DNA of 25,949 nt from an uncultured Alphaproteobacteria bacterium (GCA_929200335.1 CAKMZG010000010.1:1-25949); one strand, 5' to 3'; shown: positions 1 to 13,573, counted from the stretch's first letter. The notes: a model not told the origin generated them from the letters alone. Made by a program: numbers and translations.

Positions 1-1414
1 ATCTAATCTCAAAACTTGCCCCACCCATATTATTTCCGCTCTCAGCTTGTGTTAGTAATTTAATATCACCACCGTGTGCTTCAATAATTTCAGCCGCAAT
101 AGCCAAACCAAGTCCTGTTCCCCCTGATTTGGTTGAGCCTTCAAATGCAGTGAATAGTTTTTCACGTGCTTTTTCTGGAACACCGCGACCAGAATCAGTC
201 AATTGAATTGCAATATCATTTTCATTGCTTTGCGCGGTTAAGACCAAACGCATTTCTTTTAAGTCTGCACTATTCTCACGCATAGCCTGAACACTGTTGC
301 GAGCAAGATTCATTAAAACCCTAAACAATTGCTCGTGGTCACAATAAACCTGCACCGCCTTTGATACTTCATTTTGCCATAAAATATCCTTGGCTTGATC
401 TAAGCCTAGCAACTCAGCAACATTTTCACCGATTTCGTGCAGAGAAACTTGTTTCTTTTGATCTGGGCTTGCCTCTTTTGCCTTACCATATTCCAGCACA
501 TTTTGAGTATAGTCGGTAGCGCGTTCAATGGTTGCAACCAATTTCGGCGCAAAGCTCTGCACCTTTGGATCATCAACTGCATTAAGGCGATCAGAAAACA
601 AAAGGGCTGAGGTTAAAATATTACGCATATCATGGTTGATTTTAGAAACAGCTAGACCAAGATTTGCTAGGCGTTTCTTCTCACCCAACACCGTTTGCAA
701 TTCGCTTTGCATATCACGTAGATGGTTTTGTGCTATGCCAATTTCATCATCGCGATAGGTTTTTGGCATAACTAAATTGGGGGTCTCTGGATCTTGAGAA
801 AATTGCGATATATTATGAGTGATGCGCTGTATTGGGCGGATGATTAACCAACGCATGGACATATAAATTAAGAGTGCTGTAACAACAGCAATAATTAGAG
901 ATAACAAAATAATATTTCTGGCATATACCCACATTGCATCCCGCAATTTTGCGGCATCTAAAACCAGTTCTAATTTGCCCGGCAGAATCTTCATATTGCT
1001 AATAGCACGGATAAATGTATCATCTTCTATGAAGAGATACTTCACCGAACTTAAAATAGAGCCCAAGCGCAATATTCCATCAAAATCAACCTCTTCTTGG
1101 ATTTCTGATGGCATATCTGTTGTAAGAACCAAATTCTTATGATCCCCTTGAAAAACGATAATGGCACGCGCATCAGTTGTCTTTAATACATTCATCTGCG
1201 CCACATCGCTCGGCATGAGATTTGGGTTATCGCTCAACATGACCACGGCAGCCTCTGCCGTATTCATTTTATCTTCCAGCCATGTATTTCTAAAATTGGC
1301 GATAGAGGGTATAAGCACAACAATTTCAACAAGCATCACAAAGAGAATTGTTAAAATTAGAAGTTTGCCAGACAGACCAGCTAAAACGCCTTTAGGTTCA
1401 GTTATTTTACCCAT
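1..1414 (-). CDS. Membrane-bound sensor histidine kinase (2 TM, HAMP, HisKA, HATPase_c); 3' end runs off the left edge
   Basis: Not in the ORF track; translated by hand from ATG at 1414 and open for 471 codons to the edge. MGKITEPKGVLAGLSGKLLILTILFVMLVEIVVLIPSIANFR (TM1), TM2 IILLSLIIAVVTALLIY, HAMP IRPIQRIT...DDEIG, H-box INHDMRNIL, N-box LMNLARNS, G1 DSGRGVP, G2 GGTGLGLAIA. Confidence 0.93.
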   Translation of the reverse strand, partial: MGKITEPKGVLAGLSGKLLILTILFVMLVEIVVLIPSIANFRNTWLEDKMNTAEAAVVMLSDNPNLMPSDVAQMNVLKTTDARAIIVFQGDHKNLVLTTDMPSEIQEEVDFDGILRLGSILSSVKYLFIEDDTFIRAISNMKILPGKLELVLDAAKLRDAMWVYARNIILLSLIIAVVTALLIYMSMRWLIIRPIQRITHNISQFSQDPETPNLVMPKTYRDDEIGIAQNHLRDMQSELQTVLGEKKRLANLGLAVSKINHDMRNILTSALLFSDRLNAVDDPKVQSFAPKLVATIERATDYTQNVLEYGKAKEASPDQKKQVSLHEIGENVAELLGLDQAKDILWQNEVSKAVQVYCDHEQLFRVLMNLARNSVQAMRENSADLKEMRLVLTAQSNENDIAIQLTDSGRGVPEKAREKLFTAFEGSTKSGGTGLGLAIAAEIIEAHGGDIKLLTQAESGNNMGGASFEIR

Positions 1415-1456
1415 CCACTACTCTTCACTAAATACATAGCCCCATTACAGTATTCA

Positions 1457-2911
1457 TTAACCGAATATTCGCAAAAATCCAAGCAACTTACGTAATATTG
1501 GTGATTTAGGAGCATCCGCATAATAGGTAATAGCAGCACGCTTACCTATTTCAGTCATTGTCGGATAAGGCGATACAAAACCTGCAATATCTTTAACCTT
1601 CATACCTTTTGAGATTGCTAAAGCCCACATATTAATCATTTCGCCGGCATTTTGACCAACAATCGAGACCCCTTCAATCTTACCGTTCTTACGGGTGATC
1701 ATTTTAATCAGGCCATCGGTTTTCTTTTCTGCCTGCGCGCGATCATTTTCTGAATAATCCCACCGTAAAATTTTGATGTTATCGCCTAAGACTTTTTTCG
1801 CTGTTTCTTCCGTATGGCCAATATGAGCGATCTCTGGATCTGTATAAGTTGCCCATGGAATCATATGGGTATTTTCACGCGCTGGCAGACGAAACAAAAT
1901 TGCTCTTACCACAAGTCCCGCTTGATATCCCGCCATATGGGTAAATTGCAAGCTACCTGCAACATCGCCAATGGCATAGACGCGCTTATTGGAGGTGCGC
2001 ATTTTATCGCTCACCTTGATACCTCGTCGGGAATATTCAATGCCCGCAGCCTCTAGTCCAAGGCCATTTACATTTGCAGCACGCCCCGTAGCAACCAGCA
2101 AATGTGATCCCTCAATAGCGCGTTCATTTGGAGCTTCATCAGTACCAATGTTCAATGTTACAAGAACACCATCGCCTTGTTTAGCAACTTTAACAACTTT
2201 AGCACCTTCTAGAATTTCTACGCCATCCTCACGGATTTTCTTCAAAGCAATTGCCGTTAGCTCAGGATCATCTTTACCCAAAGCTTTAAAGCCTTCCACA
2301 ACAGTTACCTCAGCACCAAGACGGCGATGAGCTTGCGCCAATTCCATACCGATAGGACCACCACCAATAACAATTAACTTTTTCGGCGCCTCTTTCATAT
2401 CAAAGATAACTTCATTGGTAAGATAATTCACCTCATCCAATCCTGAAATTGGTGGCACAAAAGGCGATGAGCCTGTTGAGATGACAAAACGACGGGCTTT
2501 TATCTCATATTCAATACCGTCTTTACCCGTTGAAACAACCGTATTGGCATCTTTAAATTGGCCAGCACCTTCAATGACATTGACCCCTAAACCTTCAAAG
2601 CGCTCTACAGAATCATGAGGTGCAATAGTGCCGATAACACTATGGATATGATCATGAACTTTGCCAAAATCGACTTTTGGCTCACCAGCATCAATGCCAA
2701 ATTTCTTTGCGTCTTGGATGGATTTAGCATATTTTGCTGCGGCAATAATAGCTTTGGATGGCACGCAACCGTAATTCAAACAATCGCCACCCATTTTACC
2801 CTTTTCAAGCAATACAACATCAACACCAAAAGCGGCCGCTGCGGCTGCAACAGATAGCCCTCCAGAACCAGCACCAATAATGCAAATATCAGGCGTTAAT
2901 TTTACTGTCAT
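1457..2911 (-). CDS. Class I pyridine nucleotide-disulfide oxidoreductase, MerA/dihydrolipoamide dehydrogenase-like, substrate unknown
   Basis: FAD motif IIGAGSGG, redox disulfide GGDCLNYGCVPSK, second Rossmann motif GGGPIGME, ATGR, AIGDV, interface motif PYPTMTE. No lipoyl or NmerA domain and no C-terminal Cys pair. ATG 2911 preferred because GGAA lies upstream; 2923 is the alternative start. Confidence 0.9.
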   Translation of the reverse strand: MTVKLTPDICIIGAGSGGLSVAAAAAAFGVDVVLLEKGKMGGDCLNYGCVPSKAIIAAAKYAKSIQDAKKFGIDAGEPKVDFGKVHDHIHSVIGTIAPHDSVERFEGLGVNVIEGAGQFKDANTVVSTGKDGIEYEIKARRFVISTGSSPFVPPISGLDEVNYLTNEVIFDMKEAPKKLIVIGGGPIGMELAQAHRRLGAEVTVVEGFKALGKDDPELTAIALKKIREDGVEILEGAKVVKVAKQGDGVLVTLNIGTDEAPNERAIEGSHLLVATGRAANVNGLGLEAAGIEYSRRGIKVSDKMRTSNKRVYAIGDVAGSLQFTHMAGYQAGLVVRAILFRLPARENTHMIPWATYTDPEIAHIGHTEETAKKVLGDNIKILRWDYSENDRAQAEKKTDGLIKMITRKNGKIEGVSIVGQNAGEMINMWALAISKGMKVKDIAGFVSPYPTMTEIGKRAAITYYADAPKSPILRKLLGFLRIFG

Positions 2912-2928
2912 TTCATGTTCCATTCTTT

Positions 2929-2965
2929 GTTTTAAAGCTTCACCATAGTTTTAAAGCTTCACCAT
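2929..2965. repeat. Exact tandem 18-bp direct repeat GTTTTAAAGCTTCACCAT x2 (2929-2946, 2948-2965)
   Basis: Read directly from the sequence; copies are separated by one A. Confidence 0.95.
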
Positions 2966-3014
2966 GGCTATAGTTTCTTAATACAACATAGTATCTATTA
3001 TTAATTTCAATAAT

Positions 3015-3043
3015 TTTATATTAGACTTACGACTTCTATTCAA
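3015..3043 (-). promoter_or_regulatory. Putative sigma70 promoter for the oxidoreductase-kinase pair
   Basis: Minus strand TTGAAT-N17-TATAAA, immediately after the DedA stop codon. The region is AT-rich, so a chance match is possible. Confidence 0.5.
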
Positions 3044-3044
3044 C

Positions 3045-3821
3045 CTATTGAGCCTTGCGCTTCTTCCATGCCTTTAGAACAATTGGAATGAGTGCAACGA
3101 AAATCAATGCAATCATAGCACCTATAATTTCTGGCGTAATTGCAGCTTTTAAATCAATAGAACAAGTTCCTGCAGCCCCACATCCTGGATTAGCAGCTTC
3201 TTGAGCAGCAATGATACTATCCAACCCCTCGCCCAAGAAAGCATATGCAAATGTTCCCGGTGCAATGCCGATAAATGTTGCTGCGAAATAAGACGGCAAC
3301 CGCACATTAAACAGCGCTGGTGCAATATTGATCAACCAAAATGGGAATACAGGCACCAAACGCAAGAATAAGAGGTAATTAAAGGCATCCTCTTTAAAGC
3401 CATCAGCTAGCTTAGCAACGCTTTTGCCTGCTTTTTCTTGTAATATACTGCCAAAAGATGTTCGTGCAGCCATAAAGATAATGGATGCCCCAATGGTTGC
3501 TGCCAAAATGGTTATAGAACCACCAATCAACCAACCGAAGAAAAAACCACCCGCTATGGTAAGCAACGATGCCCCAGGAAAAGATAGAGCCACTGCCACA
3601 ATATAAAGACCAGCAAAGGTAAGCAAAGATATAAAGAGATTCTCATTAACATAACTGGCTAAATCAGCACGGTGCTGAATCAATGCAGAGAGCGTAAAAA
3701 ACTTATGCCAGCCCATAGCATAGGCAAAACCCATTAAGCCTAGGATCACAGCAAGAGGTGTAAAGCGTTTCATCAAAGAAACTTTTGTTTTTGGCTCGAT
3801 GTGTTGCGCTTCTTTTTCCAT
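3045..3821 (-). CDS. TVP38/TMEM64 (VTT domain, DedA superfamily) membrane protein
   Basis: Re-entrant motifs ALSFPGASLLTIAGGFFFG and LLFLRLVPVFPFWLIN, then GIAPGT and several hydrophobic helices. ATG 3821 preferred because GGAAG lies upstream; 3875, 3857 and 3836 are alternatives. Confidence 0.9.
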   Translation of the reverse strand: MEKEAQHIEPKTKVSLMKRFTPLAVILGLMGFAYAMGWHKFFTLSALIQHRADLASYVNENLFISLLTFAGLYIVAVALSFPGASLLTIAGGFFFGWLIGGSITILAATIGASIIFMAARTSFGSILQEKAGKSVAKLADGFKEDAFNYLLFLRLVPVFPFWLINIAPALFNVRLPSYFAATFIGIAPGTFAYAFLGEGLDSIIAAQEAANPGCGAAGTCSIDLKAAITPEIIGAMIALIFVALIPIVLKAWKKRKAQ

Positions 3822-3864
3822 ATTTAAGTCTTCCATTTGTGTAGAACCTGTAACCATTTGCGAA

Positions 3865-4746
3865 TTATTTTGCATCGTTCAAGCTCCAATCATAAGCATA
3901 GCTTGAAATCTTAGCATCCTTGATTCGTGCTGCAAGCTCAGGTTTAGCATATTTAAGCCAATGTTTTTTAAGTCTTTTTGACCCACCAAAATCACCCGCA
4001 TACCATTTGTAGATTTTTGACGCTGTTATCTTACCATTTTTAACCGAAATGCCACGCGGGTGATTAACATATGATACCGCGCTTTGTTTCATTAAACCAA
4101 AACGATTAGCGCCTGTATAAGCCCTATTCATCAGATTTGGGCAGGAAAAGGATGCGCAATTTAAAGCATAATGAGACAAAGCGGTTTTAAAGATAGGACG
4201 AATGATTTTATGCTCAATTTCATCCAAGCTCAGATTTTCACCTGAAACTTTCAAAATATCCTTTGCCCAAGGCCCAGAACCAAAGAAAGAGCCTCCAAGA
4301 TTAATTTTCTTTATGGATTTGATTGGATATTTAGAAGCTACTAGCTCCAACGTCTTGGCATTATATAGATTAATCCAATAAGCATGCGCCTCACCTTTTT
4401 TCAAAGCTTTGGCATCTACACCCTGTAGGGTTTTGAGGTAATTGCGAAGCGCACTTAATCCGCCGGACTTCAACCCCTTATAATTAACCCGATTATAACC
4501 ATCGTTGCCCACTTTAACGTATTTTCTCACAAGCTTATCATATGCACTATGATCAACAGATCCTGTCCCTTTTGGGGCAAACGTCTTAGCCAGAGAAGCT
4601 GCATCTGCTTGCCCTGTAGCAATGATAAAAAAGGCTGCAGATAGCGTAAAACCTAATGCAAGTGTTAAGCCTATTTTAGACTTATTATTAATAGGCTTAA
4701 CACTTACTAACGCCCCATCCTGTGTATTTTTAAATTTGTTATTCAT
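3865..4746 (-). CDS. DUF547-family exported protein
   Basis: Signal-like segment (KSK...LALGFTLSAAFFIIATGQADA) and family-like motifs VNY, AYWINLYNA, LSLDEIEH, HYALNCASFSCP, SKIYKWYAGDF, YDWSLN. Start at 4746 or 4761. Confidence 0.85.
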   Translation of the reverse strand: MNNKFKNTQDGALVSVKPINNKSKIGLTLALGFTLSAAFFIIATGQADAASLAKTFAPKGTGSVDHSAYDKLVRKYVKVGNDGYNRVNYKGLKSGGLSALRNYLKTLQGVDAKALKKGEAHAYWINLYNAKTLELVASKYPIKSIKKINLGGSFFGSGPWAKDILKVSGENLSLDEIEHKIIRPIFKTALSHYALNCASFSCPNLMNRAYTGANRFGLMKQSAVSYVNHPRGISVKNGKITASKIYKWYAGDFGGSKRLKKHWLKYAKPELAARIKDAKISSYAYDWSLNDAK

Positions 4747-4972
4747 CTGACTTACCACCATATTTTTGTTAATAGCTGACCTTCATTCTCTTGATGGAAT
4801 AAAAAAACATTCAACACAATTAAAATTCAGAGCACCTCACTCCCATTTGAGATCAGCACACATTCAACTCACGTTTCTGTGATTAGATGGCAAGAAAAGC
4901 CGCTTTTTTCACGCTTTTAATTAAAAACTGCAATAAATTTGTAAAATTAGCTGAAAATCCAGCGCTCATGAA

Positions 4973-5001
4973 TTGACTTAAAGCCTTCAGCTGACTATAG
5001 A
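4973..5001 (+). promoter_or_regulatory. Putative sigma70 promoter of the rpmH-rnpA-yidC operon
   Basis: TTGACT (4973-4978)-N17-TATAGA (4996-5001), a near-consensus match with canonical spacing. Confidence 0.7.
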
Positions 5002-5139
5002 TGCACGAAATTTGATGGCAAATGTCGATCTCATAATTGTGTAGTATAAGAATTGCATATTATAGGAATCGCGTTATAAAGCTGATCTCACATTAAGAAT
5101 ATTCAAACAAGAAGGCCCGCCTAAGCGTGGGAAGATACT

Positions 5140-5274
5140 ATGAAGCGTACATACCAACCAAGTAATCTTGTTCGCAAACGTCGCCACGGTTTCCGTGCAC
5201 GCAAAGCAACTGCATCTGGCCGTAAAATTTTGGCAGCACGTCGCGCGCGCGGTCGCAAGCGTTTATCTGCGTAA
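5140..5274 (+). CDS. rpmH: 50S ribosomal protein L34
   Basis: Below the ORF-track length cutoff. Hand translation [44 protein letters not shown] (44 aa); GGGAAG upstream; precedes rnpA. Confidence 0.99.
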
Positions 5275-10816: not shown

Positions 10817-12214
10817 TTAGACAGGTAATTTTACAGTGGCTTTCAAGCCCCCCATTTGGCTGGTTGAGAACTCAATATCGCCCCCATGAATACGGGCAAT
10901 ATCACGCGCTATTGTAAGGCCGAGGCCCGTGCCTGTTTCATCTTGATTACGTGCCTCATCCAAACGGACAAAGGGTTTAAACACCTCTTCAACCTTATCA
11001 TCAGGAATGCCAGGACCATCATCTTCAATCTTTAAGATAAACCATTCCTCATCTTGATGTGAGGTTACTCGAACCTTATTGGCATAGCGAAAAGCATTGC
11101 TAATGAGGTTGGTCACCAAACGGGTAAAAGCAGCAGGACGTGCTTGAATAACACCGCTCCCCTCACAATAATAATGAAAATCTTTTCCTTTAACTTCTGC
11201 TTCGGAATAAAACCGCTGCATAATGATTTCAATATCAACAGTTGTAGTATCTTCACCACCATCGCCACGAGTAAAATCCAAATAGCCTTCCAACATATTT
11301 TGCATTTCATCTACATCATTTTGCAAATCGCGAACTTCTTGACCATCGCCAACCAGCGCCAATTGTAATTTAAAGCGGGTTAGGACTGTACGTAGATCAT
11401 GACTAACGCCCGCAAGCATGGCCGTTCGCTGTTCAATCTGGCGTTCAATACGTTCGCGCATAATTAAAAAGGCATTGCCCGCACGCCGCACTTCTGTTGC
11501 ACCGCGAGGTTTAAAATCATAATCCGACAATTGACCTTTACCAAAATTATCAGCTGCATTTGCCAATTGCTGAATAGGTTTAATTTGATTAAGTAAAAAT
11601 AAAACTGCAATGATAATTAACACCAATGCGGTGCCAACCATCCAAATCAAAAATATATGCGAATTAGATGCATAGGCTTGATTGCGATAAACATAAACCC
11701 GCAAAATTTTATCGCCCAAATTGATCCGCACTTCTAAAAGATCAGAATCCCCCACTGTATCCAACCAATAGGGTTTTTCAATTCGATCACGCAATTGCTC
11801 CCCCATTACCCGATCAAGTATAGAAAAGAAGGGTTTGGGAGCTGGTGCCGGCAATGGTTCCATTGGCAAAATTGAAATATTAAGTTTCATTCGGTCGCGG
11901 GCGATATCCGTGATGATTTTATAGTCTGCATCTTGTGGGTATTGCTCCACAATATCCACAATCGCAGCAATATCACGCACCACAGATGATGATAAGCGTT
12001 GGGTTACACTCTGCCAGTGGCGCTCCATAAACACAAAGGCAAGCACTGATTGAAACACCACCATAGGTACAATGATAATTAACAGCGAACGCCCAACCAA
12101 GCCTTTTGGTAAGTGCAAGAATGAAAGCCGCGAAAATCTACGCCAAGCAAGACGAAGCCGCTTCAAGACAGGTAAATCTTTTCGATTTTTAATTTTTGCT
12201 AATTTTTGCAGCAA
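10817..12214 (-). CDS. EnvZ-like sensor histidine kinase
   Basis: Two TMs, HAMP, H-box SHDLRTVL, N-box NLISNAFRY, DDGPGI, GTGLGL; TTG start with GGGAG upstream. Confidence 0.93.
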   Translation of the reverse strand: MLQKLAKIKNRKDLPVLKRLRLAWRRFSRLSFLHLPKGLVGRSLLIIIVPMVVFQSVLAFVFMERHWQSVTQRLSSSVVRDIAAIVDIVEQYPQDADYKIITDIARDRMKLNISILPMEPLPAPAPKPFFSILDRVMGEQLRDRIEKPYWLDTVGDSDLLEVRINLGDKILRVYVYRNQAYASNSHIFLIWMVGTALVLIIIAVLFLLNQIKPIQQLANAADNFGKGQLSDYDFKPRGATEVRRAGNAFLIMRERIERQIEQRTAMLAGVSHDLRTVLTRFKLQLALVGDGQEVRDLQNDVDEMQNMLEGYLDFTRGDGGEDTTTVDIEIIMQRFYSEAEVKGKDFHYYCEGSGVIQARPAAFTRLVTNLISNAFRYANKVRVTSHQDEEWFILKIEDDGPGIPDDKVEEVFKPFVRLDEARNQDETGTGLGLTIARDIARIHGGDIEFSTSQMGGLKATVKLPV

Positions 12215-12246
12215 AAAACATCTCCCTTTGACGTCCTCATAGTAAT

Positions 12247-12969
12247 TTATGATTCTACACGTAACCGATAACCAATACCACGTACTGTTTGCAGATATAT
12301 CGGATTAGCTGGATCATTTTCCAACTTACGTCGCAAGCGATTAATTTGCACATCAACAGTCCGTTCATTTGACAGATTATCATCCCCCGTTAAAGCATGG
12401 CGCGGAACCGTCTCCCCCGCACTATTGCTCAAGATTACCATAAAATCAGTTTCCCGCTCAGTTAATCGGATATTTGTACCTTGTTTTAACAGTTCGCGAC
12501 GCACAAGGTTGAAGGTATATTCTCCAAAATTAACCTCATCAATCACAGGTGTATCATCCACCTTTACCCGCTTTAAAATGCTATTAATTCTCAATAATAG
12601 CTCTCTTGGATCAAATGGTTTTGCCAAGTAATCATCCGCTCCAGCTTCTAACCCCTCAATGCGCGCATCAACTTCAGCAAGGGCTGTCAGCATTAATATA
12701 GGTGTATCATTTGTAGCAGAAATTGATCGGGTTAATTCCACACCGCTCTCACCGGGCATCATCACATCAACAATTAGAAGATCAAAGGCAATACCCTGCA
12801 ATTTATTACGCGCGTCCTGCGCATCTTGCGCAAGAGAAACGCGAAATCCATTTTCAAAGAGAAAGCGTGCAATTAAATCACGAATACGCTTATCATCATC
12901 AATGACCAAAATATGTGGCGCAGTATCATCTACGGTCCCATTGCTGGCGTTATTTCCTTGTTGTGACAT
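12247..12969 (-). CDS. OmpR-family response regulator (PetR-like)
   Basis: Receiver IDDD, phospho-acceptor DVMMPGESG, MLTA, KPF; winged helix ERTVDVQINRLRRKLE...TVRGIGY. Confidence 0.95.
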   Translation of the reverse strand: MSQQGNNASNGTVDDTAPHILVIDDDKRIRDLIARFLFENGFRVSLAQDAQDARNKLQGIAFDLLIVDVMMPGESGVELTRSISATNDTPILMLTALAEVDARIEGLEAGADDYLAKPFDPRELLLRINSILKRVKVDDTPVIDEVNFGEYTFNLVRRELLKQGTNIRLTERETDFMVILSNSAGETVPRHALTGDDNLSNERTVDVQINRLRRKLENDPANPIYLQTVRGIGYRLRVES

Positions 12970-13019
12970 TCATCAACTCCAGTTCATACCTCTTGCCAAT
13001 AGATTTTCAAATTAGATTA

Positions 13020-13514
13020 TCAGAGTTTTTGCAAGTGTTCCACCACTGTCAGACTTTCAATCCCAATCAAGTTTTTCAAAAAATTTTCAGCAAATTCACG
13101 ATTTTCTATGCCCACTTTCTGCAATGCTGTCTCAATACGCTTAGATTGTAACTCAGATAATTTTAAGGCCAACTCTCGCCCCTTTAGGGTTGGATACAAC
13201 AAACGTTGACGGCGATCGCGCCTACCAACTTGTTGATCAATATGCCCACTTTCAATAAGTTGACGTAAAACCCGCGCTAGACTTTGCTTGGTTATCTTTA
13301 AAATATCTAAGAGTTCAGCCACCTTTAATCCAGGGTCACGATTAACAAAATGCAAAACACGGTGATGTGCGCGGCCAAAATCATAAGTTTCTAAGATTTC
13401 ATCTGCATCAGCGATAAAATCCCGATAAGCGAAGAAAAACAGCTCAATCAGCCTAAAATCTGGCCCATCTGCTGGGGTAAGTGGTGTTAAAATACGCTTT
13501 TCTAAATCACTCAT
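13020..13514 (-). CDS. MarR-family transcriptional regulator (PetP-like)
   Basis: GRAHHRVLHF, HTH VAELLDILKITKQSLARVLRQL, wing DRRQRLLYPT. ATG 13514 preferred over the track's TTG at 13571. Confidence 0.9.
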   Translation of the reverse strand: MSDLEKRILTPLTPADGPDFRLIELFFFAYRDFIADADEILETYDFGRAHHRVLHFVNRDPGLKVAELLDILKITKQSLARVLRQLIESGHIDQQVGRRDRRQRLLYPTLKGRELALKLSELQSKRIETALQKVGIENREFAENFLKNLIGIESLTVVEHLQKL

Positions 13515-13573
13515 CTTATAACTCGCTTGAAGCCTTTGATAGCTCACATAAGGCTTTATGCCAAAAATCAATA

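Follow-up and report, generated by a model that had tools for sequence, protein, structure and literature searches.

What the COG0398-type DedA proteins do is an open question, and the parts of Todor, Herrera and Gross (2023, mBio; PMC10127716) that deal with fusions name the fusion to a reductase as the main clue to it. These parts report COG0398::PF07992+PF02852 as the commonest COG0398 fusion, infer a possible scramblase role, note an association with aerobic metabolism and state that COG0398 genes are essential in two model Alphaproteobacteria (Caulobacter and Dinoroseobacter). They assign no function, and the association of DedA with a reductase is published there as a fusion statistic only. 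Here we analyse a four-gene cassette of an uncultured alphaproteobacterium, which encodes, in this order, a DUF547 protein, a VTT/TVP38 (COG0398-type DedA) membrane protein (VTT), a MerA-like class I flavoprotein reductase (RED) and an orphan sensor histidine kinase (HK). It is located within a stretch of 25,949 bases at the very beginning of contig C10 (GCA_929200335.1, CAKMZG010000010.1:1-25949), which we call the window in its entirety; the assembly comprises 2.58 Mb in 311 contigs and is rated 100% complete.

The cassette contains the same two families, in the same pairing, as the published COG0398-reductase fusions. It differs from these in that the genes are separate and are joined by a DUF547 gene and an orphan kinase gene beside rpmH-rnpA-yidC; DUF547 and a kinase are both absent from the passages of PMC10127716 that carry fusion terms. 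A description of the alphaproteobacterial form, which is single-copy, linked to the kinase and adjacent to rpmH, was found neither in these passages nor in full-text literature searches, and the latter returned no functional study of a bacterial DUF547 protein or of the cassette. To an initial annotation of the same DNA, too, the function of the cassette appeared undescribed.

Other known systems resemble the cassette in parts. The mer operon likewise spans three compartments and includes a CxxxxC reductase with Tyr in place of His and a periplasmic Cys pair (in MerP). RED, however, has neither an HMA/NmerA domain nor a C-terminal Cys pair and scores below the cut-off of the MerA model TIGR02053, and VTT lacks conserved Cys, so that the thiol hand-off chain which defines mercury transfer is missing. 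The RclABC system of E. coli consists of the flavoprotein reductase RclA, the periplasmic RclB and the membrane protein RclC, and its reductase is MerA-like and free of metal-binding extensions. Here, by contrast, the partners are VTT and DUF547 rather than DUF417 and DUF1471, and a kinase stands in the place of RclR. DsbD and CcdA would serve the same purpose as the cassette if DUF547 needs periplasmic reducing power, but they use two conserved membrane-embedded Cys, of which VTT has none, and receive their electrons from thioredoxin instead of a dedicated flavoprotein. A module found in another alphaproteobacterium (locus L048, G138:C5, 2057-9835) combines DUF547, VTT and a flavoprotein reductase as well, agrees with the cassette in predicted topology and in the DUF547 Cys motif, and pairs a VTT::DUF547 fusion with a reductase that passes the cut-off of NF004991 (837.8 bits; cut-off 620). 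The window differs from it in its reductase, which reaches 446.9 bits in the same model, in its kinase, in its housekeeping position and in being single-copy.

The four genes of the cassette are a real, widely conserved and uncharacterised module of Alphaproteobacteria, of which VTT and RED form the core, HK is a conserved fourth member and DUF547 is an optional third member. Pfam confirms all four families (DUF547, VTT_dom, Pyr_redox_2 with Pyr_redox_dim, and HATPase_c). In a sample of 201 Alphaproteobacteria, about one per family, an ortholog of RED (E <= 1e-90) is found in 106 genomes at 111 places, a relative of VTT in 115 genomes and an ortholog of HK (E <= 1e-40) in 95, in every one of them as a single copy. 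VTT directly adjoins RED, in either gene order, at 86 of the 111 RED places, and HK adjoins RED, VTT or DUF547 at about 69 of its 95 places (adjacency was read by eye from coordinate tables). Where RED is located elsewhere or was not found (genomes G025, G117, G122, G070 and G099), HK still lies beside VTT. Membership of the kinase, as claimed in the initial annotation, is thereby upheld for Alphaproteobacteria, and its guess that the cassette may be widespread is borne out by a RED-VTT unit in about half of the sampled families.

DUF547 is less frequent, being present in 52 of the 201 genomes. RED occurs in 46 of these 52 and in 60 of the 149 without DUF547, the genomes being related to each other and not independent. 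Of the 65 DUF547 places, each viewed with 8 kb of flanking DNA to either side, about 20 have VTT or RED in this span; chance would put a given single-copy gene there in well under 1% of cases. DUF547 joins the others in two gene orders, DUF547-VTT-RED-HK and VTT-RED-HK-DUF547. Among the nearest 80 DUF547 loci in GTDB species genomes, VTT is adjacent in 44, of which 41 also have RED, and HK is present too in 32. Since many alphaproteobacterial families possess this cassette, the arrangement is far above chance, and the co-occurrence of DUF547, VTT and the reductase, which the annotation had suggested, holds well beyond random clustering in the 201-genome sample.

The limits of the module are likewise evident from its surroundings. 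In 59 loci with a RED ortholog, conservation beyond the cassette is confined to rnpA, yidC and engB, which are encoded on the opposite strand (42-45 of 59); nothing is conserved downstream of HK, and a response regulator is not linked. We interpret this as a bounded four-gene unit which has been located beside the rpmH-yidC region since ancient times. Hoeflea prorocentri has its genes in exactly the same order, yidC-rnpA-rpmH / DUF547-VTT-reductase-kinase. About half of the alphaproteobacterial families sampled keep DedA and the reductase together as a vertically inherited, single-copy unit that has a dedicated orphan kinase, and many such units also include a periplasmic two-cysteine protein. 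This makes the cassette a compact and tractable four-gene system for asking what RED reduces and what VTT moves. The full cassette of the alphaproteobacterial type, with a reductase of 52% identity, was also encountered on two contigs labelled as metagenome-assembled genomes of Flavobacteriaceae (L090 and L119), which may be mis-binned contigs rather than an occurrence of the module in Bacteroidota.

Fusion proteins provide insight into the topology of the module. Two loci, L130 and L048, encode VTT::DUF547 fusions, in both of which an extra hydrophobic helix follows the basic C-terminal patch of VTT and precedes DUF547; in L048 a lipobox-like LAGC is present as well. This additional anchor places the C-terminus of VTT inside and DUF547 outside, in agreement with the N-terminal hydrophobic segment and subsequent A-D-A of the DUF547 protein of the window. 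Apparent VTT::RED fusions, seen as open frames of 700-800 aa, were rejected because VTT and RED are in different frames; frame arithmetic and extraction of open reading frames (ORFs) show the two genes to overlap, to abut or to be only a short distance apart, in DNA of high GC content. The DedA-reductase fusions which the initial annotation had mentioned are on record in the fusion passages of PMC10127716, whereas the candidates from our own sample are not counted as such. A complex prediction for VTT (residues 30-276) and DUF547 (residues 50-298) gave a score of 0.00, which speaks neither for nor against binding.

RED is encoded on the minus strand at 1457..2911, if the likely start M5 is used, while the longest ORF extends to 2923, which corresponds to a protein of 484-488 aa. 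Its redox-active disulfide CLNYGC (C48-x4-C53; 2765..2782, minus strand) had been recognised earlier together with one further Cys, which is Cys14. In the ortholog samples used for residue conservation, which are enriched for Hyphomicrobiales, all 59 sequences have C48, C53 and K57 without exception. The same is true of Y453 and E458 of the motif P-Y453-P-T-x-x-E, which aligns with Y-L-T-M-x-E of MerA rather than with lipoamide dehydrogenase and its H-P-T-x-x-E dyad. The C-terminus forms a conserved basic amphipathic tail ending in F/L-G in every ortholog inspected; a Cys was not seen in the 40 tails inspected of the 59 orthologs aligned, and a Pfam search recovered no HMA/NmerA domain.

The closest solved structure to RED is a MerA. 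Identification of RED as MerA was rejected all the same, since the Tyr at the His position agrees but the C-terminal Cys pair and the HMA domain are missing and the score of 372.3 bits stays below the cut-off of TIGR02053 (454.45). RED does not fit lipoamide dehydrogenase either, in view of the replacement of the catalytic His by Tyr453 and of a score of 355.4 bits (TIGR01350; cut-off 408.8). The models for RclA (NF040477; 195.3 bits, cut-off 740) and for the MerA-type hypothiocyanous acid reductase (NF041853; 211.9 bits, cut-off 650) are likewise not reached. The best NCBIfam match is NF004991, an FAD-containing oxidoreductase, which is also missed at the score given above, and by these sequence comparisons we regard RED as a distinct subfamily that is sister to NF004991. 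By the established motif rule, the Glu that follows the second strand of the Rossmann fold (V-T-V-V-E) points to NADH as the probable electron donor.

The VTT gene lies on the minus strand at 3045..3875 with an uncertain start between M1 (3875) and M19 (3821). Its VTT_dom (PF09335) scores 81 bits against a Pfam cut-off of 33.9, and 83.8 bits in a scan of the whole genome, in which it is the sole VTT-domain gene above the cut-off. The only other match is a 145-aa frame with 32 bits (C144:5799-6092). A standard COG0586 undecaprenyl phosphate (UndP) flippase of the DedA family seems to be missing from the organism. The basic C-terminal tail of VTT is predicted to be cytoplasmic. That VTT holds just two Cys, in CGAAGTC (Cys232/238; 3162..3182, minus strand), was noted earlier and is exact in count and coordinates. 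The periplasmic loop that precedes the last transmembrane helix bears an insert, and both Cys belong to it. Of 57 orthologs from cassettes, 32 retain the pair, all with the insert, and 25 lack it, all without the insert; the latter include Hoeflea, the closest named relative. Elsewhere in VTT no Cys is conserved, and no Cys column reaches 60% in these orthologs. The distribution indicates that the pair is most likely a lineage-specific structural disulfide which staples the loop.

The DUF547 gene is situated upstream of VTT at 3865..4761 on the minus strand, with M1 (4761) or M6 (4746) as the start, and codes for an exported or signal-anchored protein (PF04784; 63.4 bits, cut-off 27). A hydrophobic segment at residues 30-48, followed by A-D-A, and the topology of the fusions characterise the protein as periplasmic in prediction, in line with the export assumed previously. 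The only two Cys, exactly as annotated, form the pair CASFSC (Cys202/207; 4141..4158, minus strand) inside the motif H-Y-A-x-N-C-A-S-x-x-C-P. All 17 cassette copies examined have the pair, as do 73-74 of the 87 sequences that represent clusters at 50% identity. Several residues are stricter than the Cys pair, namely N131, N134, W129, Y133, H197, P208, R188, D257, W292 and N295; the family motif W-I-N-L-Y-N is present, N131 and N134 do not vary at all, and H197 and P208 reach a conservation of 90% or more. An AlphaFold model built from the 87 sequences is confident, with a pLDDT of 89.5 and a pTM of 0.83. A PDB profile search with DUF547 returned no match and the ESM Atlas returned DUF547 clusters only; a thioredoxin-like fold is not supported by these searches, nor by Foldseek or VIA-align.

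Domain fusions hint at the chemistry of DUF547. In the exported metagenomic representative P0381 (806 aa), a thioredoxin domain of the TlpA/AhpC type (WCGPC) is fused to a DUF547 domain, which retains only the second Cys of the family pair, while some 390 N-terminal residues are without a Pfam match. In plants, class IV glutaredoxins (GRX) are GRX-DEP-DUF547 proteins (PMC13621322). Two independent fusions to thioredoxin folds make redox-cycling Cys in DUF547 plausible, and we regard a redox role of the pair as plausible from this sequence evidence. Further architectures among the DUF547 proteins combine the domain with a TonB-dependent receptor or with IalB, or repeat it in tandem (P0273, 1081 aa; P0355, 470 aa; P0244, 565 aa), and some of these may be merged metagenomic gene calls. 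Tandem DUF547 genes occur in the loci L035, L052, L057 and L060.

HK is encoded at 2..1414 on the minus strand, its C-terminus being cut off by the end of the contig. Two transmembrane helices, near residues 18-36 and 168-186, and a periplasmic loop of some 130 aa are accompanied by an H-box and a HATPase_c domain. The latter passes its cut-off with 69.3 bits; HisKA stays just under its cut-off of 26.9 with 22.7 bits, the H-box H-D-M-R-N being visible. No NCBIfam equivalog reaches its cut-off for HK. A cognate response regulator is not conserved beside HK in the 59 loci, and in the window the contig ends within the kinase gene.

We propose, as a reading to which we give an even chance of being correct, that a membrane-docked RED acts on a small non-protein substrate carried or presented by VTT, and that DUF547 handles the same species in the periplasm. 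RED would dock at the cytoplasmic face of the membrane, or on VTT itself, by means of its basic amphipathic tail. Type II NADH dehydrogenases (NDH-2) have amphipathic C-terminal membrane anchors and offer an analogy for this tail. As an NADH-dependent flavoprotein of the MerA/Lpd superfamily, RED would reduce the small substrate with its invariant CxxxxC/FAD centre, and VTT would carry or present this substrate across the membrane. Candidates for the substrate are soft metal(loid) or chalcogen species and a lipid-soluble or lipid-linked electrophile. RED would not reduce VTT itself, because VTT has no conserved Cys. The Cys pair of DUF547 would probably perform thiol chemistry on the same substrate or be kept reduced by it, and the orphan kinase would presumably sense the same envelope cue. 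From the linkage, fusions, topology logic and residue conservation observed above we infer the docking of RED, the kind of substrate, which way the flow runs and what the kinase senses.

Several observations weigh against this reading. About 57% of the RED-bearing genomes have no DUF547, which is thus not essential to the core of the module. Part of the linkage could stem from old vertical synteny, since the cassette has kept its place next to rpmH-rnpA-yidC. Of the 14 DUF547 representatives (among the 87) that deviate from the Cys pair, 13 have lost both Cys together, which fits a purely structural disulfide equally well. The fold of DUF547 has no solved relative (best Foldseek E-value 0.6; VIA-align wide Z 5.2), so that a chemistry cannot be read from its structure. 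Finally, the nature of the substrate is suggested only by the His-to-Tyr replacement in RED and by the neighbours of the paralogous modules.

These paralogous modules bear on an alternative in which the cassette detoxifies an oxidant (hypothiocyanous acid, HOSCN; hypochlorous acid, HOCl) or a metal(loid) (Cu, Hg, Se, Te, As) in the manner of RclABC or mer, with the kinase as a stress sensor. Away from VTT and RED, the commonest neighbour of DUF547 genes is a small GT2 gene which passes the TIGR04283 cut-off (16 of 73 loci). At L048 the VTT::DUF547 fusion and its NF004991 reductase lie beside a gene of 726 aa with three domains (AglJ-like GT2, TIGR04282 and TIGR04283), and VTT::DUF547 and NF004991 modules thus occur next to TIGR04282/TIGR04283 "arsenosugar biosynthesis glycosyltransferase" genes. 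The L048 module also includes a large polytopic membrane protein without a family match. The solved MerA as closest relative of RED, the Tyr common to both at the His position, and the three-compartment architecture, which is also that of MerP-MerT-MerA and RclA-RclB-RclC, point in the same direction. Nonetheless we consider detoxification of this kind unlikely. RED remains under the curated cut-offs of MerA, RclA, the HOSCN-reductase MerA type and NF004991, it has neither NmerA/HMA nor a C-terminal Cys pair, and VTT offers no Cys for a metal hand-off. The genome itself has no ArsS (TIGR04167; best 28 bits, cut-off 300) and no TIGR04283 (best 22.8 bits, cut-off 182), TIGR04282 not having been searched. 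The arsenic- and radical-SAM-related neighbours mentioned in the initial annotation hence exist for the paralogous module type, as at L048, but ArsS and TIGR04283 are absent from the genome of the window. In addition, a single-copy module in a housekeeping position, held by about half of the alphaproteobacterial families, is unlike a mobile resistance set.

Alternatively, reduction could be mediated by a carrier, such that RED regenerates a small reduced carrier, VTT moves it outward and the DUF547 Cys pair is re-reduced by it, a scheme which we hold to be distinctly unlikely. The relay idea of the initial annotation would live on in it, with a wire that diffuses. Candidate carriers would be a low-molecular-weight thiol, a lipid-soluble dithiol or a quinol, delivered to the outer leaflet or the periplasm. 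The fusions of DUF547 to the thioredoxin domain of P0381 and to plant GRX suggest catalytic Cys that need re-reduction. The scheme further agrees with the linkage and fusions of VTT, RED and DUF547, and with the view, expressed in the fusion passages of PMC10127716, that COG0398 proteins may be lipid scramblases. However, the His-to-Tyr replacement in RED speaks against classic disulfide reduction, most RED-VTT pairs have no DUF547, and P0381 is a single protein. In its most developed form this would be a transmembrane reducing pathway that needs no Cys within the membrane, with a docked RED, a DedA scramblase moving the carrier, a re-reduced DUF547 and HK reporting the flux. We take this form to be very unlikely. 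If it were true, COG0398 DedA proteins would gain a defined job, and a third periplasmic reducing route would stand beside DsbD/CcdA and the quinone-linked systems.

It is also conceivable that VTT and RED cooperate alone, and that DUF547 and HK are mere neighbours by descent in the old rpmH-yidC region. The flanking of the cassette by rnpA, yidC and engB, indicating an ancient synteny of the whole region, is what one would expect in this case, as are the many DUF547 genes located elsewhere, which form the majority, and the missing link to a response regulator. Such mere neighbourhood is nevertheless highly improbable in our view. DUF547 adjoins the core in two different orders, upstream of VTT and downstream of HK, and is fused to VTT at L130 and L048; HK stays beside VTT where RED has moved away or was not found; and the presence of DUF547 tracks that of RED across the sampled genomes.

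The initial annotation had proposed a wire that is independent of DsbD/CcdA, in which electrons pass from NADH to the CxxxxC of RED, on to the Cys pair of DedA and finally to the Cys pair of the periplasmic DUF547. It had itself named a lack of conservation of the Cys pairs as evidence to the contrary, and this is what was found for DedA, while the pair of DUF547 is conserved in the cassette copies and that of RED in its orthologs. The true linkage of the three proteins, the conserved DUF547 pair and the presence of exactly one candidate Cys pair per protein in the window lend some appeal to such a relay, but it is almost certainly wrong, as the DedA pair resides in a lineage-specific insert, the loop bearing it is periplasmic by topology and so cannot meet the cytoplasmic RED, RED has neither a mobile C-terminal thiol pair nor the His-Glu dyad of disulfide reductases, and the genome carries an ordinary CcdA/DsbD_TM gene. 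On grounds of conservation in the aligned orthologs, we regard a relay through the DedA Cys as refuted as a general mechanism, by which an attractive but wrong thiol wire through DedA is removed from consideration.

The gene models of the cassette agree with those of the initial annotation. The four genes are co-oriented on the minus strand and divergent from rpmH, which is located on the plus strand at 5140..5274 and is followed by rnpA, yidC, engB, a gene of the isochorismatase family and argB. The gaps of 43, 133 and 42 bp given before are reproduced when VTT starts at M19 (3821, which yields the 43-bp gap) and RED at M5, and the start M6 of DUF547 (4746) matches the end coordinate formerly given for the cassette. 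The best protein matches have at most 72% identity and come from Hyphomicrobiales (Hoeflea, Ahrensia, Lentilitoribacter), which indicates that the host is an alphaproteobacterium without a close sequenced relative.

The 133-bp spacer between VTT and RED is AT-rich and unusually long compared to about 58 bp in Hoeflea; in several of the relatives sampled, VTT and RED almost touch or overlap. It contains two 18-nt direct copies of ATGGTGAAGCTTTAAAAC with a period of 19 (2929..2965, minus strand), which could represent a regulator binding site or a local or recent duplication. The best sigma-70-like promoter match, TTGCCA and TATAGT separated by 16 nt (10/12; 4994..5021, minus strand), lies in the divergent region upstream of DUF547 and is a consensus match only; promoter and terminator scans yielded counts not above the shuffled expectation. 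Among sequencing runs, the sequence is contained in that of the source DNA and in no RNA run.

A separate and complete two-component system, composed of a HAMP-HisKA-HATPase kinase and an OmpR-type regulator, is encoded in the window at 10817-12969 (minus strand). A MarR-family gene is located next to it, and the whole stretch covers 10817-13571 (minus strand). The kinase of this system is unrelated to the HK of the cassette, with which it shares 25% identity.

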